Shown piece by piece: positions 18,697 to 27,222 of a stretch of 64,000 nucleotides of DNA. Location: the NCBI GenBank assembly GCA_000004695.1, contig CM000152.2:4480001-4544000 (forward strand), in the 5' to 3' direction. Position 1 is the first letter of the stretch. Each line of letters starts with the position of its first letter. Both the position numbers and the translations under genes were made by a program. The notes beneath the pieces are model-generated. The model was not told the DNA's origin and did not search any database. It was given only the letters and a program-made list of their open reading frames with translations. This DNA comes from Dictyostelium discoideum (Eukaryota).

Positions 18697-20298
18697 TTAA
18701 TTTGATTTTGGAGCTTCAGTGGTAGTTGGGGCAGCAGTGGTGGTAGTGACTGGTTTGGAGACTTGTTCTGGTTTCATAGCTGGGAAAAGAATAACTTCTT
18801 TAATGTTATAAGTATCAGACATTAACATAGCGAAACGATCGATACCAAGACCGAAACCACCAGTTGGTGGAAGACCATATTCGAGTGAGGTAGTGAAAAC
18901 TTTATCGATAAGCATAGATTCATCATCACCGGCAGCTTTAGCTTTAGCTTGTTCAGCGAAACGTTCGATTTGAACGAATGGATTATTTAATTCGGTGTAA
19001 GCATTACAGATTTCTTTGGTGTTGACAAAGAGTTCGAAACGTTCAGTTAATTGTGGTTTCTCTCTGTGATATTTGGAGAGTGGTGACATAATTTCTGGAT
19101 GATTGATGATGAAGGTTGGATTGATACATTGTACTTCTAAATATTCACCAACAAGTTTATCTAATAAACGAGCGGTAGTTTGTGGAGCAGAGCATTCAAC
19201 TTTACGTTCACGACAGGTTTTAACTAAAAATTCACGACATTCTTCACTGGTGTATGGGGTTGGAATCTTTTCACCAATGATTGCTTCCAAATCGGCAATC
19301 ATATCGATCTTTCTCCATGGTGAAGAGAAATCGATTTCGATTTCCTTACCTGATGGACCATCTGGGTGATATTTAATTTTGAGGGAACCATGGATACTCA
19401 TTACGATGGATTGGAGTAATTGTTCGGTCATGGTGTAGAGATCATTATAATCAGCGTATGCCATATAGAACTCGCAAGTGGTGAACTCTGGGTTATGGGT
19501 GTGATCGATATCTTCATTTCTGAATTGTTTACCAATTTCATAGACACGATCCATACCACCGACAACCAATTGTTTAAGGTAGAGTTCTGGTGCAATTCTC
19601 ATAAAGAGATCCATGTTGAGGGCGTTGTGATGGGTAAGGAATGGTTTAGCGGCGGCACCACCTGCGATCATATTCATCATTGGTGTTTCGACTTCAATGA
19701 AACCTAAATTGTCGAGATAACGTCTTACACCTTGAATAACCTTTGAACGAATGATAAAGTTCTTCTTTACACTTTCATTGCAAATCATATCCAAATAACG
19801 TTGTCTGAATCTGGTTTCTGGGTCTGTTAAACCTGAGGCTGCCTTTGGTAACATATGTAAACATGGTGATAATAAAATAACCTCTGTGGCAAATAATGAA
19901 AGTTCACCAGTCTTTGAACGACCTGGTGTACCTTTGGCACCAATAATATCACCACGTCTTAAGAGACCATTGATTTTAACGTAATCTTCTTCACATGATG
20001 CGTATGCACGTTTGTTAACTAAAACTTGTACTTTGTTGAACTCACCAGTGATATCGTAGAAAACTAAACCTGATCCTGCTGCTCTCTTACTTAAAACACG
20101 ACCTGCAATTGATACAACTTGAGTTGATGGTTCACCATCTTTTTCAAGAACTGAAAATTCTTCAACAAATTTTGGTAATTGATGTGAAACTTCAAATTTA
20201 TGTGGCCATGGGTTAACACCAATATCAGCACTTGTTAATTGTTTAGTACGATTTTCTTTATACATTGATGGATCGAAATCTTCTTCATCATTCTTTTT
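18697..20298 (-). CDS. lysS: Lysyl-tRNA synthetase (class II), main exon.
   Basis: The class II motifs and the lysRS-specific block [41 protein letters not shown] are present, with an N-terminal anticodon-binding OB region (WPHKF...[10 protein letters not shown]). The frame is open upstream of the annotated Met to an acceptor at 20299-20300. Confidence 0.85.
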
Positions 20299-20570
20299 GG
20301 CTGGTGCTCTTAAATATTAAAATTAATATATATAAATAAAATATATTTTTATATTTATTTAAATAAATAAATAAATAAATAAATAAAAAAAAAAATGAAA
20401 AAAAAAAAATTGTTAGAAATAAGTTCTGAGAAAAATGAGTAGTATTTGTAAATATTAAAAAAAAAAAAAAAAAAATTAAAAAATAAAATAAAATAGGATA
20501 TTAAAAATTTTAATAAAAGAAAAGGAAATAAATAAATTATTTAAACCAAATATTTCATTTCCGAAATTAT

Positions 20571-20606
<36 letters not shown>

Positions 20607-20649
20607 CTTTTCTTTTCTTTCTATTAAACCTATTTGTTAATCCAATATT

Positions 20650-20688
<39 letters not shown>

Positions 20689-20695
20689 TACATAC

Positions 20696-20739
20696 TGTTT
20701 AGCTGGTTGTTTGGCTGGAGCTGGAGCTGGAGTTGTCAT
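20696..20739 (-). CDS. lysS: Lysyl-tRNA synthetase, putative 5' exon (MTTPAPAPAKQPAKQ), joined across a 397-bp intron at 20299..20695.
   Basis: A minus-strand ATG at 20739 is followed by a GTATGT donor after 44 nt. The phase-2 junction with the AG acceptor at 20299-20300 gives MTTPAPAPAKQPAKQ|[20 protein letters not shown], a Lys/Ala/Pro-rich N-terminal extension typical of eukaryotic LysRS. The intron is unusually long for this genome. Confidence 0.45.
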
Positions 20740-21092
20740 TTTTAATTATTTATATATGTATTGGTATTTCTAAAAAAAAAAAAAAAACTAAAAAACTATC
20801 GAAAAAAAAAAAAAAAAAAAATTAAAAACGAAAAAAAAACTTAAAAAAACTATCAAAAAAAAAAAAAATAAAATAAAAAAATAAAAAAATTAAAAAAAAA
20901 AATTCCAAAATTCAATTCAATACAATCCCACACTTCACCCCATTTTATTATTATTTTTAGTTTTTTTAAGATTTAAAATATTATTATTTTTTTTCTGAGA
21001 TATTTATATTATTTTTTTTCTATTATTTATTTCATAATCAAAAATTCAAAAACTTATTTATGTTTTAATTTTTTTTTTTTTTAATTTTTTTC

Positions 21093-21130
<38 letters not shown>

Positions 21131-21720
21131 TGTAATATAAAAAAAAAAGCTATTATAAAATTTTATTTTTAATATAATTTTATGGTTTTATTCAATAATA
21201 ATATCAATTATGCATTAATTTTATTTCAATATTCAATTCTTTTTTAATGTTAAATCAATTTATTAAATTTATTGAAATAAAAAAAAAAATAAAAATAAAA
21301 ATAAACCAAAATTGGAATTATATAATGCAATTTAATTATTATTTATTCCAATACATTTTTATTTTAATGGAAACTTATTTACACTTCCATAATTTAAAAT
21401 AACCATGTGGAAGTAAACCTATTTATTCCATGTTTTTTTTTAAACGGGAATAGAATGCTCTATTCTAAAAAGATAGAAAAAACAAAAAAAAAAACAAAAA
21501 AAATTAAATTAAACAGCCGATCGTTTATTTTATTGTTTTTTTATTTTTTTTAATTTTTTATTTTTTTTATTTTTCAATTTTTTTTTTTTCGAGTTAAGAA
21601 AAACTATAAAACCATAAAATTTTTTATAATATTTTAAATTAAATATCATTTTTTGTATTATTACAATTACCTTTTTTTTTTTTTTCAATAAATTAATAAA
21701 TATAAAAATTATCATTTAAA

Positions 21721-21832
21721 ATGTGCAAAAAGATTACTTGCGGTAAATGTACTAAACCAACTTGGGCTGTATGTATTTTATTTTTTTATTAATCTTATAT
21801 TTATTTTTATTTTTGTCTATGCTAACCATAAA

Positions 21833-21870
<38 letters not shown>

Positions 21871-21950
21871 TATAGGGTTGTGGTCAACATATTGAAAGTT
21901 GTTTAGCAGATGTACCAGTCAATGAAAGATGTGTTTGTGCTCGTACCTGA
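21721..21950 (+). CDS. Two-exon micro-ORF encoding a 40-aa Cys-rich peptide, MCKKITCGKCTKPTWAGCGQHIESCLADVPVNERCVCART. Exons are 21721..21768 and 21876..21950.
   Basis: The ATG at 21721 is followed by a GTATGT donor at 21769. A 107-bp AT-rich intron ends TATAG at 21871-21875. Both junctions are phase 0, and the TGA stop is at 21948-21950. The peptide has 8 Cys in 40 residues and is not in the ORF track. Confidence 0.4.
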
Positions 21951-22254
21951 ATCGCATTTGTTCAAGAAAATAAAATAATGATATCAATTGCTTTGGTATT
22001 ATTATTGTATAGATTATTTCAATAATAATAATAATAATAATTAAATAAATTTAAAACGATATATAACAATATTTCAATTCTTTTTTTTTTTTTTTCTTTT
22101 TTTTTTTTAAAGAAGAGGAAACAAAAAAATAAAGATTTTAAAAGGATACATAATAATATTTTTTTTAATGTTGCTCTTGATGTTTTTTTTTTTTTTTTAT
22201 TTTAAAAACATAATTAAAAACTGGAAAAAAAAAAAAACAAAAAAAAAAAACAAA

Positions 22255-25063
22255 TTAGTTTAGTAAAAATTCAGATTTAACAACCCATCTCTTTGAAACT
22301 TTGCTAAATTCTGAAACACTTTTTAATAAAACCTTAAATAATGGTGCTTGTTCTTCAGTGATTGTTAATTGGAAATTGTTAATAATTGATTGAGTTGTGA
22401 CTGAACCACCTTTTTCCATAATAAAGTTAAAAATACTTTCGATAATCTCTGAAGAATTTAATCCACCAAATAATGTTTTAGCAGTTTCTTCCTCTTCAGC
22501 ATTTAATGTTGATAATAATTTTGATGATGAAAATCTATTATTATTATTATTTTTATTATTATTATTATTATTACTATTATTACTTTGATTGTTATTATTA
22601 TTATTATTATTGTTATTATTATTGTTATTATTATTTAAAAGTGTACTATCATTAAGTGATGTGATATTTGAAATTTGTTGAAGTGGTGATAAATGAGTTG
22701 GTAATTTTGATTTTTGACCAAATCTTCCGCCACCGCCACCACCACCAATTGGACTAGAAACTGCTAATGAAGTAGAGGTTGTAGTTGAAGTTGGTGATGT
22801 AATGAATGATGGAGCGCCACCAGAACCAAATCTTCCAGTCCAAGTTGGTGTATTACCAGTAATTTGTTCACGAGATTTCTTTAAAATACTAACAGCTTTT
22901 GAGGCGATTTTCTCAGCTTCATTCATTAATAATGAATGTTCTGGTCCTGATTGGTCCATAATTGTGTCATGTTTCAAAGCACTCTTTAAACCTTCTTTCT
23001 CGAATAAACATTTCAAAATATATGAATCGTCATTCTCTCCACTTGGTGAATTATTACCATCAATATCAGCATCAGCATCAACATCATTCTTGATTTTATT
23101 ATTATTATTATTTCCTATAATTCTTTTACCATGATTACCTCTAACTCTTTTTTTACTTTTGCTATCACTTTCATCACTACTACTATAATTATTATCACCA
23201 TCATCTTTTTTCTTTTTTGGTATTAATGGTGAACTACTATTTAAAATACTGTTATTATTATTATTCTTATTTTTAATTGAATTTTTATCATTTTTATCAT
23301 TCATATGTTCAGGTAAAATTTCAGAATTTGAACCAGAAAAGATATCACCAGTTTCTGAACCTTTTTTATTTTTTGTATAGGTGAATAAATCTTTGAAATG
23401 TTTTGATTTAAAGAATCTTTTTTGACGTGGATCTTTTAAGATTTTATTGGTTAAGAATTGTTTATAGATTTGACGATGATAGATTTTCTCTTCTATTGTA
23501 CCCAATGTGATTAGACGATAAATCGTTACAGCTTTCTTTTGACCAATTCTGTAGACTCTTTCCCTTGCTTGCATATCAGTTGATGGATTCCAATCTGGGT
23601 CAAACAAGATCACCCTATTGGCACCAGTTAAATTTAAACCTAATCCACCAACTTTTGTAGTTAGCAAGAAAATGAATAATGAAGGATCAATATTAAATTG
23701 TTCAACTAAACATTGACGTTGTCTAATTGAGGTCGTACCATCCATACGAAGATAATTGAATTGTGTTGAATCTCTAATATACTGCTCTACGATATCCAGC
23801 ATTTGTCTAGTTTGACAAAATAATAATACTTTATCACCTTGTTTAAACCATAGGGGTAGGATGGTTTCCACCACTTTTAACTTTGCACTTCTTTCAATGT
23901 TACCATAATCATGTGGTCTATCTTCATCACTGGCATCCATATGAAGTATATCAGGATGATTGCAAATCTTCTTCAAAATATCAATACCATAGAGAGCATT
24001 ACGCCTTCCATCCAATACTGATTTAATATCGTTACTATCTAAAAACTCCAAATAAAGTTTCTCTTGAAATGGTGTCAATGGACACATTAAAACCTGTTCA
24101 TTCTTTGATGGAAGTGATTTCAATACATCGGATTTCACTCTTCTAAGCATGTATGGTGAGATTAAATCACGTAATGCCACTGCACATTTATAGGCTGCTT
24201 GAACTTGTATTGGAGATGCATTGGCAAATCCACCAACGGAAATGGGTAATGAAAATTGAGATTTAAAAATTGGCAATGTTCCTAACCTACCAGGGAAAAC
24301 AAAATCAAAAAGTGACCATAACTCTGTTAATTTGTTTTGAATTGGCGAACCTGATAAAATCACCCTATGTGGAGTTTGAAGTTGTTTACAAGATAGTGTA
24401 ATCTCTGCATCTGGATTACGAATTTTATGACCTTCATCTAAAATAACATATTCCCAATGATACTTTAACAATATCTCTTGATTTATACGAATTGAATCAA
24501 ATGTTGTCAAAAGTATATGCCCCTTTTCTGCAATCTTTTTAACAATATCTTCTTTATCACTACCATCATTACCACCACCACCACTACCACTTGAATGAAA
24601 TAAACCAACTCTAAATGGTGGCCACCATTTATGAAACTCTTTAATCCAATTAGAAAGTAATGTAGCTGGCGCAACAATTAAAGCAGGACCACCTAATCTT
24701 CTACTATAATGAAGTGATGCCAAGAATGAAACGATTTGTACGGTTTTACCTAAACCCATTTCATCACCAACAATACCACCAGTTTCTTGACAATGCAATT
24801 CATATAACCAACGAACACACGTAACTTGATATTCAAATAAATTCTTATAAATATCAAATGGTATCTTAAAATTTTCATCAATTTCATAATCATCACCAAT
24901 TATTTCTTCTTCAGCTTCTTTTTCTTCTTCTTCTTCAAATATTTTTTCAATTTCATTATTATTATTTTTATTTAAAACTGCTTCTTCATCTAATTTTTCA
25001 TTATTTAAATATTCATCCTCAGCTAAATCATATTGACTTGGATATAATTCATCTTCATTTTCT

Positions 25064-25095
<32 letters not shown>

Positions 25096-26854
25096 TTTCA
25101 TTAAATTATCAGTATATTTCTCTAATACTTCAAGTCTTTTCTTTTGATCCATTTTCTTTATACGATCTCTAATTTTCTTTTTCTTCCATTCTAATAATCT
25201 CTTTTGATAAACTTTTTCATTACCATCATCAGTCCATCTCTCTTTATGAATGTTTAATAATTCTTTTGGTATACGATCATCATAATCAATTTTTTCATCT
25301 TCATCATCTTCATCTTCGTCATCATTGTCATCATCATCATCCACGTCTTGTTTTCTTTTTCTTTTATTATTTGAAATTGTACTTTTTATTGATTTTTTAT
25401 TCTTTTTTAATGTAAATTCTTCTTCAATTTCATCTTCATCTTCATCTTCATTATCTTCAATTTCAATTTCTTTATAATCTTCTTGATCATCATCATCATC
25501 TTCATCATCATCATCATCATTCTCTTCATTTTCATTTTCATCATTCTCTTCTTTTTCATTATCATCATCCTTTTCTTTATTAGTATCGGTAGTTAAATTT
25601 AATCTATTGGTAGGAGTTCTAATTCTACCACTAAGACTAATATCTAAATTTAATAAATCATCATCATTATTATTTTTTGGTTTTGATTTTGATTTTGGTG
25701 TCGAGATTTTTTTTAATTTTGAATTTGATTTTTTTGAAGATTTTGGTGGAGGAGATTCATCATTTTCTTCTTTTTCAATATCAATTTCATCTTCTTCATT
25801 TTCTTCTTCATTGTTATTATTATTATAATCATCATTATCATCTTCTGAAATATTTAAAGATTCCATATCATTAAAATCATCATAAAATTCTTGTAATTTC
25901 TTTGGTGGATCACGTTGAATACTATACTTTTTCATTTTTTTTTGTTTCTTTTTCTCTTTTTCAGTTAATACTTTCTTTTTCTTTGCATCGAATCTATTTG
26001 TGGTCTTTTTAATTGGTTTTAAGAATATTTTACTACCACCACTGCCACCACCGCCACCGCCTTGATTCTTTTCATTTTGTTCAGTTTCTTTCTCTTGGTC
26101 CAATGTTTTTGTGATATCAACAACGTCATCCAATACAATTGTTTTTTTATTTGTTTTTGAATGCATTTCAGAGAATGGTGTAATTTTACCAGTTCTAATT
26201 AACCTATCTCTTTCAGATTCAGTAGTAGAGAAACCAAATGCTTTATCGAATAAACTTGGTAATGGTAATTCACCAATTGATTTATTTTCACCACTACTAT
26301 TTGAACCATCTGGTTTTCTTTTTTGATCATTTATTCTTTTCTCTCTATCTGTTTTTATCTTTTCTTTAATTTCAATGATTTTATTTTGAGTTGATTTCTC
26401 TTGACTCTTTAAATCGCTAAGTTTCTTCTTTTCAAATGTTATCAATGATATTAAACTTGCAAGTGTATCTTTATCAATATCTTTATTCTTTTCATTGATT
26501 TCTCTTTCATTGTTTTTAAATAGAAATTGTTCTGCCTCTGAAATATCGTTTCTAATTTTCTTTAATTTTATATCAAGTTCATTAATTTCATTATATAGTA
26601 TTTCTTTATCAATTTTATGTATTACTTTATTTTCAACATAATTTGAACTATATTGTGTAACACCCAATTTCGATAAATCTAATGATTGATTATTATTATT
26701 ATTATTATTGTTAAATCTATTATTATTAGATGAAGTGGTGGTTGTTGTAGTCGTTTTAAATTTATTACTATTACCAGGGTCGAATCTACTAAAATTTTTA
26801 GGTAATCCATTCTTTTGTTGATCTTGTAACGATGCTCTACTTTTATTATTATTA

Positions 26855-26910
<56 letters not shown>

Positions 26911-27222
26911 GTTATTATTATTATTATTAGTTGTGGTAGTGGTTGTGGTTGGGTAAGAGCTTGTTCTTTTACCATGATACAATTGATTACCTTTACTTTG
27001 AAGAGATGATTGTGATGCTGTTGGATTTGATTTTCTTAAAAAATTAGGTTTATCATCTTTTGGTTTATTGGTAGTAGTATTATTATTATTATTATTGTTA
27101 TTATTGTTATTTATATTATTATTATCATTATTTTCTGTACTTGGTTTCCAACCTGGTAATATAAATTGTCTAATATCTTGTGATTTATTATTATTATTAT
27201 TATTATTACTATTATTACTCAT
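22255..27222 (-). CDS. ercc6: SNF2-family DNA-dependent ATPase, ERCC6/CSB/Rad26 homolog, 1655 aa.
   Basis: The helicase core WLYELHCQETGGIVGDEMGLGKTVQIVSFLASL...HKWWPPFRV...ILDEGHKIRNPDAEITL...LSGSPIQNKLTELWSLFDFVFPGRLGTLPIFKSQFSLPISVGGFANASPIQVQAAYKCAVALRDLISPYMLRRVKSDV is collinear with human CSB. An acidic N-terminal region and poly-N tracts are present. Confidence 0.85.

Follow-up and report, generated by a model that had tools for sequence, protein, structure and literature searches.

A spliced 40-residue gene between lysRS and an ERCC6-like gene

We analysed a 64,000-nucleotide (nt) stretch of Dictyostelium discoideum DNA (assembly GCA_000004695.1, contig CM000152.2, positions 4,480,001 to 4,544,000 of the forward strand; hereafter the window, whose own numbering is used throughout) and focus here on DDB_G0281439, a two-exon gene whose spliced product is a cysteine-rich protein of 40 amino acids (aa) (Table 1). 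The gene model became public with the annotation of the D. discoideum genome, and as a gene discovery it is nothing new: a preliminary description of this DNA had called the gene unannotated, but an identical 40-aa protein stands in NCBI, UniProt and EukProt as hypothetical protein DDB_G0281439 (EAL66701.1, XP_640678.1, Q54TY3). Of more interest is that this protein is no orphan but, judged by sequence comparison, the minimal form of a widespread and strongly conserved Cys/His domain, and that the gene neighbourhoods of its bacterial relatives give a first functional handle on that domain, in thiol and persulfide stress.

The proposed gene structure, two exons around a 107-nt phase 0 intron with a GTATGT donor and a TATAG acceptor, was borne out by translation, which returned exactly the 40-mer that had been quoted; among all GT...AG introns, enumerated exhaustively, this one alone gives the protein. 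Other particulars needed correction. The peptide had been described as having eight Cys, and it has seven (positions 2, 7, 10, 18, 25, 35 and 37, a Cys content of 17.5%), the number that the accompanying spacing string also gives; only six of these are conserved in the family described below, Cys25 being lineage-specific (3 of 342 members). Both exons had been put at under 20 codons and the open reading frame (ORF) track was said to miss the gene, yet exon 2 has 24 codons and a stop-to-stop ORF lister does give exon 1, as a 23-aa read-through ORF at 21721-21792. The placement in a divergent promoter region between lysRS and the 3' end of ERCC6 was roughly right: the gene is divergent from lysRS, at a distance of 981 nt, and convergent with the 3' end of an ERCC6-like gene.

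Table 1. Features of the DDB_G0281439 locus, in window coordinates
Feature	Position	Strand	Description
DDB_G0281439 exon 1	21721..21768	+	ATG + 15 codons (16 codons), MCKKITCGKCTKPTWA; carries N-terminal Cys2 and the C7-x2-C10 knuckle
DDB_G0281439 intron	21769..21875	+	107 nt, GTATGT...poly-T...ATATAG, phase 0, 89.7% A+T
DDB_G0281439 exon 2	21876..21950	+	24 codons + TGA, GCGQHIESCLADVPVNERCVCART*; carries G17-C18-G19-x-H21 and C35-x-C37
Spliced product	21721-21768 + 21876-21950	+	40 aa, MCKKITCGKCTKPTWAGCGQHIESCLADVPVNERCVCART; mechanical translation of the joined exons
Start-codon context		+	TTTAAAATG
Junction-spanning tryptic peptide		+	PTWAGCGQHIESCLADVPVNER
TATAAA, TATA-like element, putative core promoter	21701..21706	+	15 nt 5' of the ATG; a pattern position, with function inferred
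AATAAA, putative poly(A) signal	21969..21974	+	19 nt past the stop codon; a pattern position, with function inferred
lysRS, probable short first exon	20696..20739	-	ATG at 20739, MTTPAPAPAKQPAKQ
lysRS, probable first intron	20309..20695	-	~387 nt; donor GTATGT at 20695-20690, AG at 20310-20309
lysRS, long ORF	18697..20265	-	
ERCC6-like SNF2 helicase gene	22255..27222	-	3' end (stop side) at 22255
G+C bump	21370..21460		contains CACTTCCAT...CCATGTGGAAGTAAACC

The base composition of the two exons sets them apart from the DNA around them. The intron has 10% G+C and its flanking DNA outside the gene 14-15%, whereas exon 1 has 37.5% and exon 2 40%, and both exon values exceed the maximum found in any window of the same size in the surrounding intergenic DNA (0.31 and 0.29, respectively; mean 12.7%). 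Given this contrast with intron and flanks, and values above the intergenic maxima, the exons are far from what chance would be expected to give.

A large family of proteins that begin with Met-Cys

When the 40-mer alone was used in a word-indexed homology search, it found nothing but itself, and exhaustive searching with phmmer was needed in order to see its homologues. Against 1.84 billion cluster representatives, phmmer gave 641 matches at E<=1e-3, nearly all of them over residues 1-38 or 1-39, with a best E of 4e-12. A profile search of a named database raised the count to at least 2,761 clusters, whose names, where they have one, are all of the 'hypothetical' or 'uncharacterized' kind and none of which has a precomputed Pfam domain; the Dictyostelium protein itself scores E=2.8e-17 against the family profile. 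The named bacterial members belong to the Actinomycetota (Trueperella, Actinomyces, Arachnia, Tessaracoccus, Leucobacter, Saccharomonospora and Saccharopolyspora), to which genome loci add Myxococcota, Acidobacteriota, Gemmatimonadota and others. Named eukaryotic members come from two dictyostelids, Plasmodiophora, Pilobolus, Ostreococcus, Chlorochromonas, oyster (K1QLD1) and Taenia. A giant amoeba virus, Yasminevirus sp. GU-2018, also has a member (A0A5K0U7B3, 114 aa, in BFVD), which Foldseek matched at E=8.5e-4 with a TM score of 0.88, a root-mean-square deviation of 0.6 Å and 43% identity over 37 columns.

Neither single-sequence nor profile searches of the Pfam and NCBIfam models gave a family match, and neither phmmer nor the profile matched any sequence in the PDB. 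What these searches did return below threshold (DUF1096 at E=0.13, cerato-platanin at E ~0.4 and the 'WSGCG' of dendrotoxin) we regard as chance resemblance. In the papers searched, we found neither the locus tag DDB_G0281439, nor the accession Q54TY3, nor the family. By these comparisons DDB_G0281439 is a member of a large family that has no Pfam or NCBIfam accession and no characterised member.

The alignment is rigid. Invariant or near-invariant columns are M1, C2, C7, C10, K12, P13, T14, G17, C18, G19, H21, E23, L26, P30, R34, C35 and C37, and position 15 is invariantly aromatic (Trp, Phe or Tyr), which together give the signature M1-C2-x4-C7-x2-C10-x-K-P-T-[WFY]-x-G-C18-G-x-H21-[IV]-E...R-C35-x-C37. 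The Dictyostelium protein follows it throughout: it starts MC, continues with C7GKC10TKPTWAGC18GQH21IE and later has ERC35VC37, the R34-C35-x-C37 motif (or its C35-x-G-H variant) standing about 13 residues past H21. C37 is kept in 313 of 342 members; G37-H38 takes its place in 19 and G37-W38 in four.

The position of the domain within the polypeptide is as constant as its sequence. Met directly precedes Cys2 in 338 of the 342 members, and this includes 49 of the 53 for which an N-terminal extension is predicted; because these retain the Met, their extensions are most likely mis-called starts. As far as the sequences tell, the domain is obligately at the extreme N-terminus. The sole clear fusion, the metagenomic protein P0115 (250 aa), likewise begins with the domain and has an OTU-like cysteine protease domain behind it (Pfam E=9.6e-5, which is at the gathering threshold).

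An orthologue under selection and an old intron

The distant dictyostelid Cavenderia fasciculata has an orthologue, DFA_07888, which is also 40 aa long and is 73% identical to the Dictyostelium protein. Between the two genes, non-synonymous divergence (dN) is 0.17 and synonymous divergence (dS) 0.86 by the Nei-Gojobori method, a ratio of ~0.2, from which we conclude that DDB_G0281439 is under purifying selection at the level of its codons. Synteny is kept on one side: an ERCC6-like gene is convergent with the orthologue in Cavenderia too (L001:3385-6102, minus strand), while upstream Cavenderia has an unrelated ORF of 507 aa where D. discoideum has lysRS.

The intron is conserved as well. In DFA_07888 it is 92 nt long, has the same GTATGT...TATAG ends and interrupts the Gly17 codon after nt 49 (phase 1); in D. 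discoideum it lies 1 nt away, after nt 48 (phase 0). The same phase 1 position after nt 49 is occupied in Pilobolus umbonatus (57 nt) and Taenia solium (99 nt), and the metagenomic proteins P0090 and P0092 carry insertions exactly between W-A-G and G-C-G, as would be expected if the same intron were read through. The family genes of Ostreococcus tauri and Plasmodiophora brassicae are intronless. Because the position is shared by Cavenderia, Pilobolus and Taenia, with a 1-nt slide in D. discoideum, the intron must predate the split of Amoebozoa, Fungi and Metazoa, which makes this a neat example of an ancient microprotein gene. The preliminary description had proposed conservation of the frame, the Cys residues and the intron position in other dictyostelids as the test of its gene; the gene passes in Cavenderia and well beyond the dictyostelids, in a member of the Mucoromycota (Pilobolus) and a tapeworm (Taenia), with the intron within 1 nt in all three.

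It is in this light that the possibility of a chance ORF or annotation artefact, with no protein made in Dictyostelium, must be seen. The absence of DDB_G0281439 and Q54TY3 from the papers searched is what such an artefact would lead one to expect, but the exon G+C contrast, an orthologue with conserved intron, synteny and a dN/dS of ~0.2, and thousands of homologues with invariant residues leave the idea scarcely credible. That DDB_G0281439 is a real, annotated coding gene we regard as close to certain, and the original proposal of a spliced protein-coding micro-gene is thus upheld by gene model and conservation alike.

Predicted fold and candidate metal sites

AlphaFold2 (AF2) confidently predicts a β-hairpin and a short helix for the Dictyostelium protein, with a mean predicted local distance difference test score (pLDDT) of 86.7, strands at residues 3-6 and 13-16 and the helix at 22-25, and the Arachnia member is predicted to have a head of this fold too. 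In the model, C7-x2-C10 lies in the turn of the hairpin and C18-x2-H21 directly before the helix. Treble-clef and zinc-knuckle fingers have a CxxC knuckle in a β-hairpin and two further ligands from the first turn of the helix that follows, all four meeting at one metal. The Dictyostelium protein is like them in its predicted order of secondary structure and in being a small, stand-alone domain; a fold search for solved structures gave no match and retrieved no solved treble-clef protein. The small zinc-binding knuckle suggested from the Cys spacing remains the best interpretation we can offer of the Cys/His pattern, which forms the conserved core of a probable metal-binding knuckle with C7-x2-C10 in the predicted β-hairpin turn.

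Seven conserved residues are candidate ligands, six Cys and one His, and this number points to two tetrahedral sites. We propose that two metal ions, Zn(II) being the likeliest, may form the core on which the peptide folds. Site 1, treble-clef-like, would be made by C7, C10, C18 and H21, and site 2 by C2, C35 and C37 (or H38 in the variants), which would clamp both termini of the peptide together. A candidate for the eighth ligand, the fourth of site 2, is the free α-amine of Cys2 after excision of the initiator Met; if the amine does serve as a ligand, it would explain why the domain must start the protein. Invariance of the His and the exchange of Cys37 for His38 argue for metal ligation rather than disulfides, and we consider it likely, from the pattern of conservation, that the family domain binds metal.

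There are precedents for an N-terminal ligand of this kind. In the metallochaperones HypC/HupF and CooT, an invariant Cys2 at the mature N-terminus is essential as a metal ligand. These are also small cytosolic proteins with an invariant N-terminal Met-Cys, comparable to the start seen in almost all members here. The likeness ends there: there is no relation in sequence or fold, HypC/HupF and CooT being β-barrel or OB-like proteins of 70-90 residues that work in the maturation of hydrogenase and carbon monoxide dehydrogenase.

Two other ways of reading the peptide were considered. A secreted, disulfide-rich peptide was rejected, as the sequence lacks a signal peptide, the family invariably begins with MC and the operons of its bacterial members are cytoplasmic. 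The C-terminal CART (21939-21950) is formally like a CaaX box; prenylation is unlikely, with an unfavourable Arg at the a2 position, a Cys37 that belongs to a conserved ligand column and C-termini that vary in length across the family.

Gene neighbourhoods of the bacterial members

The named Actinomycetota members give the first indication of context. Three genomes of Trueperella pecoris have a CsoR-family repressor gene and, in divergent orientation to it, a Pyr_redox_2/Pyr_redox_dim/Rhodanese fusion, with the family gene 35 nt downstream of the fusion. Arachnia propionica has the order Pyr_redox_2 (467 aa), family gene, CDR-rhodanese fusion and CsoR-family repressor, with the start of the CDR-rhodanese gene overlapping the stop of the family gene. 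In the CsoR-family proteins of both genera, two Cys are spaced by 29 residues and the −4 position relative to the second is not a His, a fingerprint that is the CstR pattern and not that of Cu(I)-CsoR. CoAPR consists of a CDR domain and a C-terminal rhodanese, and its combination with CstR is established as a module of the response to reactive sulfur species (PMC9405070). In Saccharomonospora the family gene lies between a divergent rhodanese gene, upstream, and a gene of the PIG-L family, downstream.

A further 80 loci were collected as the best matches to a profile built from eight similar sequences, a sample dominated by Myxococcota, Acidobacteriota and Acidimicrobiia. Neighbouring ORFs were filtered for shadow ORFs by GC3/GC1>GC2 and confirmed by Pfam. 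Among the immediate upstream neighbours (62 scanned) were 10 thioredoxins, eight ECF σ factors, seven zf-HC2 proteins, three OsmC proteins and two CDR-rhodaneses; the immediate downstream neighbours (60 scanned) included six rhodaneses, five Pyr_redox_2/Pyr_redox_dim proteins and two DUF302 proteins. Searching each locus by BLAST with seed sequences of these families found thioredoxin in 19 loci (in 17 it lies within 50 nt and on the same strand), ECF σ in 25 (24 upstream within 1.5 kb) and CDR-rhodanese in at least eight (six within 50 nt downstream). OsmC was found in seven, DUF302 in three to six, an MBL-fold persulfide-dioxygenase-like protein in three and an SQR-like flavoprotein in one; altogether 42 of 81 loci have at least one such neighbour.

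Four architectures recur. The family gene may follow a pair of genes for an ECF σ factor and a zinc anti-σ factor (ZAS) and then a thioredoxin gene, sometimes with DUF302 and rhodanese genes after it; it may stand divergent from a σ gene and upstream of CDR-rhodanese; it may follow OsmC; or it may accompany CstR together with CDR-rhodanese or MBL. Six junctions between a thioredoxin gene and the family gene were inspected, and in each the stop and start codons overlap as TGATG, in most cases preceded by a GGAGG-like motif.

Two side observations concern these loci. In four loci of Vicinamibacteria/Acidobacteriota (L011:5694-5966, L032:3454-3675, L045:5793-5975 and L076:1749-1991), the family gene has 25-42 nt upstream of it, and in the same orientation, a second small Cys-rich ORF, which is unrelated to the family and bears the motif ACCPEAQADGVPCTELGRxCExC. 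A Kofleriaceae locus (L070:1409-1760) has two family genes in tandem, of 54 and 61 aa and with starts 166 nt apart, which lie behind ECF sigma and thioredoxin genes and ahead of DUF302.

C-terminal tails of longer members

Most bacterial members continue past the domain in a low-complexity tail of 16-40 residues. Of the tails of at least 10 residues, 92 of 283 end in [SG][FLW][FLW]x[RK][LI][FL]G[RKG] (homologues P0161-P0356, for example P0168, P0174 and P0182), as in KGFLSTILGR and SFFRRLFGG. The amphipathic C-terminal membrane-targeting sequence of E. coli MinD is KGFLKRLFGG (PMC5471200), which this motif closely resembles; the resemblance is one of sequence only and concerns bacterial and some eukaryotic paralogues. 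AF2 leaves the tail unstructured (pLDDT 53-56), and the difference in hydrophobic moment is small (0.33 versus 0.24, n=12). The likeness suggests, as a lead only, that the tail might tether the Cys-rich head to the membrane. The Dictyostelium protein differs in being tail-less, ending ...CVCART three residues past C37.

A possible role in thiol and reactive-sulfur homeostasis

Our favoured reading, held with moderate confidence, is that the DDB_G0281439 family consists of two-site metal-thiolate microproteins, the metal probably being zinc, that act in thiol and reactive-sulfur homeostasis. The metal-thiolate module would, for instance, react with oxidants or persulfides in order to accept or sense them and be serviced by thioredoxin or by CoAPR/rhodanese systems, and the Dictyostelium protein would be a stand-alone, tail-less form of it, cytosolic and comprising the one Cys/His domain only. 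For bacteria, a thiol- or persulfide-linked role seems to us reasonably probable; for Dictyostelium the same role is possible, with the balance tipped slightly the other way.

The accessory sulfur-relay and redox proteins of cst-like, CstR-regulated operons (rhodaneses, TusA-like, DsrE-like and DUF302 proteins) offer a parallel, as they are also small and Cys-dependent and share the genomic niche of the bacterial family genes, beside CoAPR-like CDR-rhodanese, persulfide-dioxygenase-like, SQR-like and CstR-like genes (cf. PMC9405070). The family is unlike them in its sequence and predicted fold, which are unrelated, in occurring also in thioredoxin/ECF-sigma operons, and in being widespread in eukaryotes.

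Three other accounts of the same residues and operons have to be set against a two-site zinc-thiolate protein, and they differ in what they make of the metal. The metal might be iron, bound by C7, C10, C18 and H21 as a rubredoxin-like Fe(Cys)4 centre or else in a mitoNEET-like 3Cys-1His [2Fe-2S] cluster, and the protein might carry electrons in miniature, or sense redox state, for the flavoprotein disulfide reductases next to it. The operons are indeed redox-stress operons, the Pyr_redox_2 flavoproteins among the neighbours belong to a family that includes rubredoxin reductases, and the four residues do make a 3Cys-1His set, with Pro and Gly between the ligands and a G-x-H ending, as in the redox-linked CDGSH/mitoNEET proteins. 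Their spacings of 3, 8 and 3 are only loosely like CDGSH, however, in which the ligands are spaced 2, 9 and 4: the CDGSH pattern C-x-C-x2-[ST]-x3-P-x-C-D-G-[SAT]-H, with its C-x-C and P-x-C-D-G-S-H elements, does not fit the C-x2-C-x-K-P-T-W-x-G-C-G-x-H of the Dictyostelium protein. Rubredoxins and zinc ribbons have two CxxC(G) knuckles, whereas there is one CxxC here and the second pair is C-x2-H. No zf-CDGSH or rubredoxin match appeared in Pfam even at E<=10, nor was there a profile match to PDB sequences or a match by fold. Moreover, NAD(P)H is the direct electron donor of CDR/CoAPR enzymes, which makes a carrier unnecessary (PMC9405070), and we consider the iron account unlikely.

An account that dispenses with the metal, in which the Cys cycle between thiol, disulfide and persulfide and the peptide acts as a sulfane-sulfur carrier or a sacrificial redox buffer reduced by a co-translated thioredoxin, draws on the translational coupling to thioredoxin in 17 loci and on the adjoining persulfide-handling genes (rhodanese, CoAPR-like and persulfide-dioxygenase-like). 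It fits less well with the residues themselves: an invariant His21 and Cys37 to His38 swaps are to be expected of metal ligands and not of disulfide partners, an odd number (seven) of conserved Cys and His suits two tetrahedral sites better than disulfide pairs, and AF2 places the CxxC in a classic knuckle turn. We judge it distinctly unlikely. Less plausible again is a metallothionein-like buffer or chaperone for Cu(I), Zn or Cd under CsoR-type metal sensors, for which one could cite the CsoR-family repressors of Trueperella and Arachnia, a cation-efflux gene adjoining in one locus and the high Cys content. The His that Cu(I)-CsoR has at −4 is missing from those repressors, which like CstR go together with a CDR-rhodanese gene, and the dominant neighbours are thioredoxin, rhodanese, OsmC and ECF sigma/ZAS rather than metal exporters. 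Metallothioneins combine clusters of C-C, C-x-C and C-x-x-C with few aromatic residues or His, and they have a variable metal load and, when metal-free, no fixed fold. Nor is the sequence that of a metallothionein, being rigidly conserved, with an invariant aromatic residue at position 15 (Trp in the Dictyostelium protein), an invariant His21 and invariant Gly, Pro and Arg, and with a confidently predicted β-hairpin and helix; metal storage of this kind seems to us improbable.

Several considerations also weigh against the zinc-thiolate reading itself. The assignment of sites draws on conservation and predicted secondary structure only, and the Dictyostelium gene model on DNA and conservation. 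The neighbour counts are raw counts from phylogenetically non-independent loci, given without background enrichment; about half of the loci have no neighbour of the relevant kind, and in Tessaracoccus the family gene lies between murI and rph, with no redox link. Finally, the eukaryotic genes are monocistronic, and the Dictyostelium neighbours, lysRS and the ERCC6-like gene, are uninformative on function.

A broader and more speculative version, which we put forward tentatively and think on balance unlikely to hold in full, is that the family is an ancient, undescribed class of N-terminal-Cys metallo-microprotein present in bacteria, most eukaryotic supergroups and giant viruses. Its two-site metal-thiolate head would be dedicated to accepting or sensing sulfane sulfur or thiol oxidants, working in bacteria with thioredoxin and CoA-persulfide reductase/rhodanese under CstR or ECF-sigma/ZAS control and often tethered to the membrane by its MinD-like tail. 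If true, this would be a missing and universally conserved component of reactive-sulfur-species homeostasis, overlooked because it is only ~40 residues long. Dictyostelium is a genetically tractable eukaryote that has the bare domain, and as such offers a route to function for thousands of 'hypothetical proteins'.

Flanking genes and intergenic DNA

Upstream of DDB_G0281439, the long ORF of lysRS probably has a short first exon, which joins it in the correct frame (Table 1). It is from the ATG of this exon that the distance to the DDB_G0281439 ATG given above is counted. A scan of 20200-22300 against Rfam gave zero matches. Within this interval, amid intergenic DNA of 10-15% G+C, is a short bump in which G+C rises to 0.27-0.30. 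It contains only low-complexity inverted repeats, with no Rfam match and no second copy in the window, and may be a promoter element.

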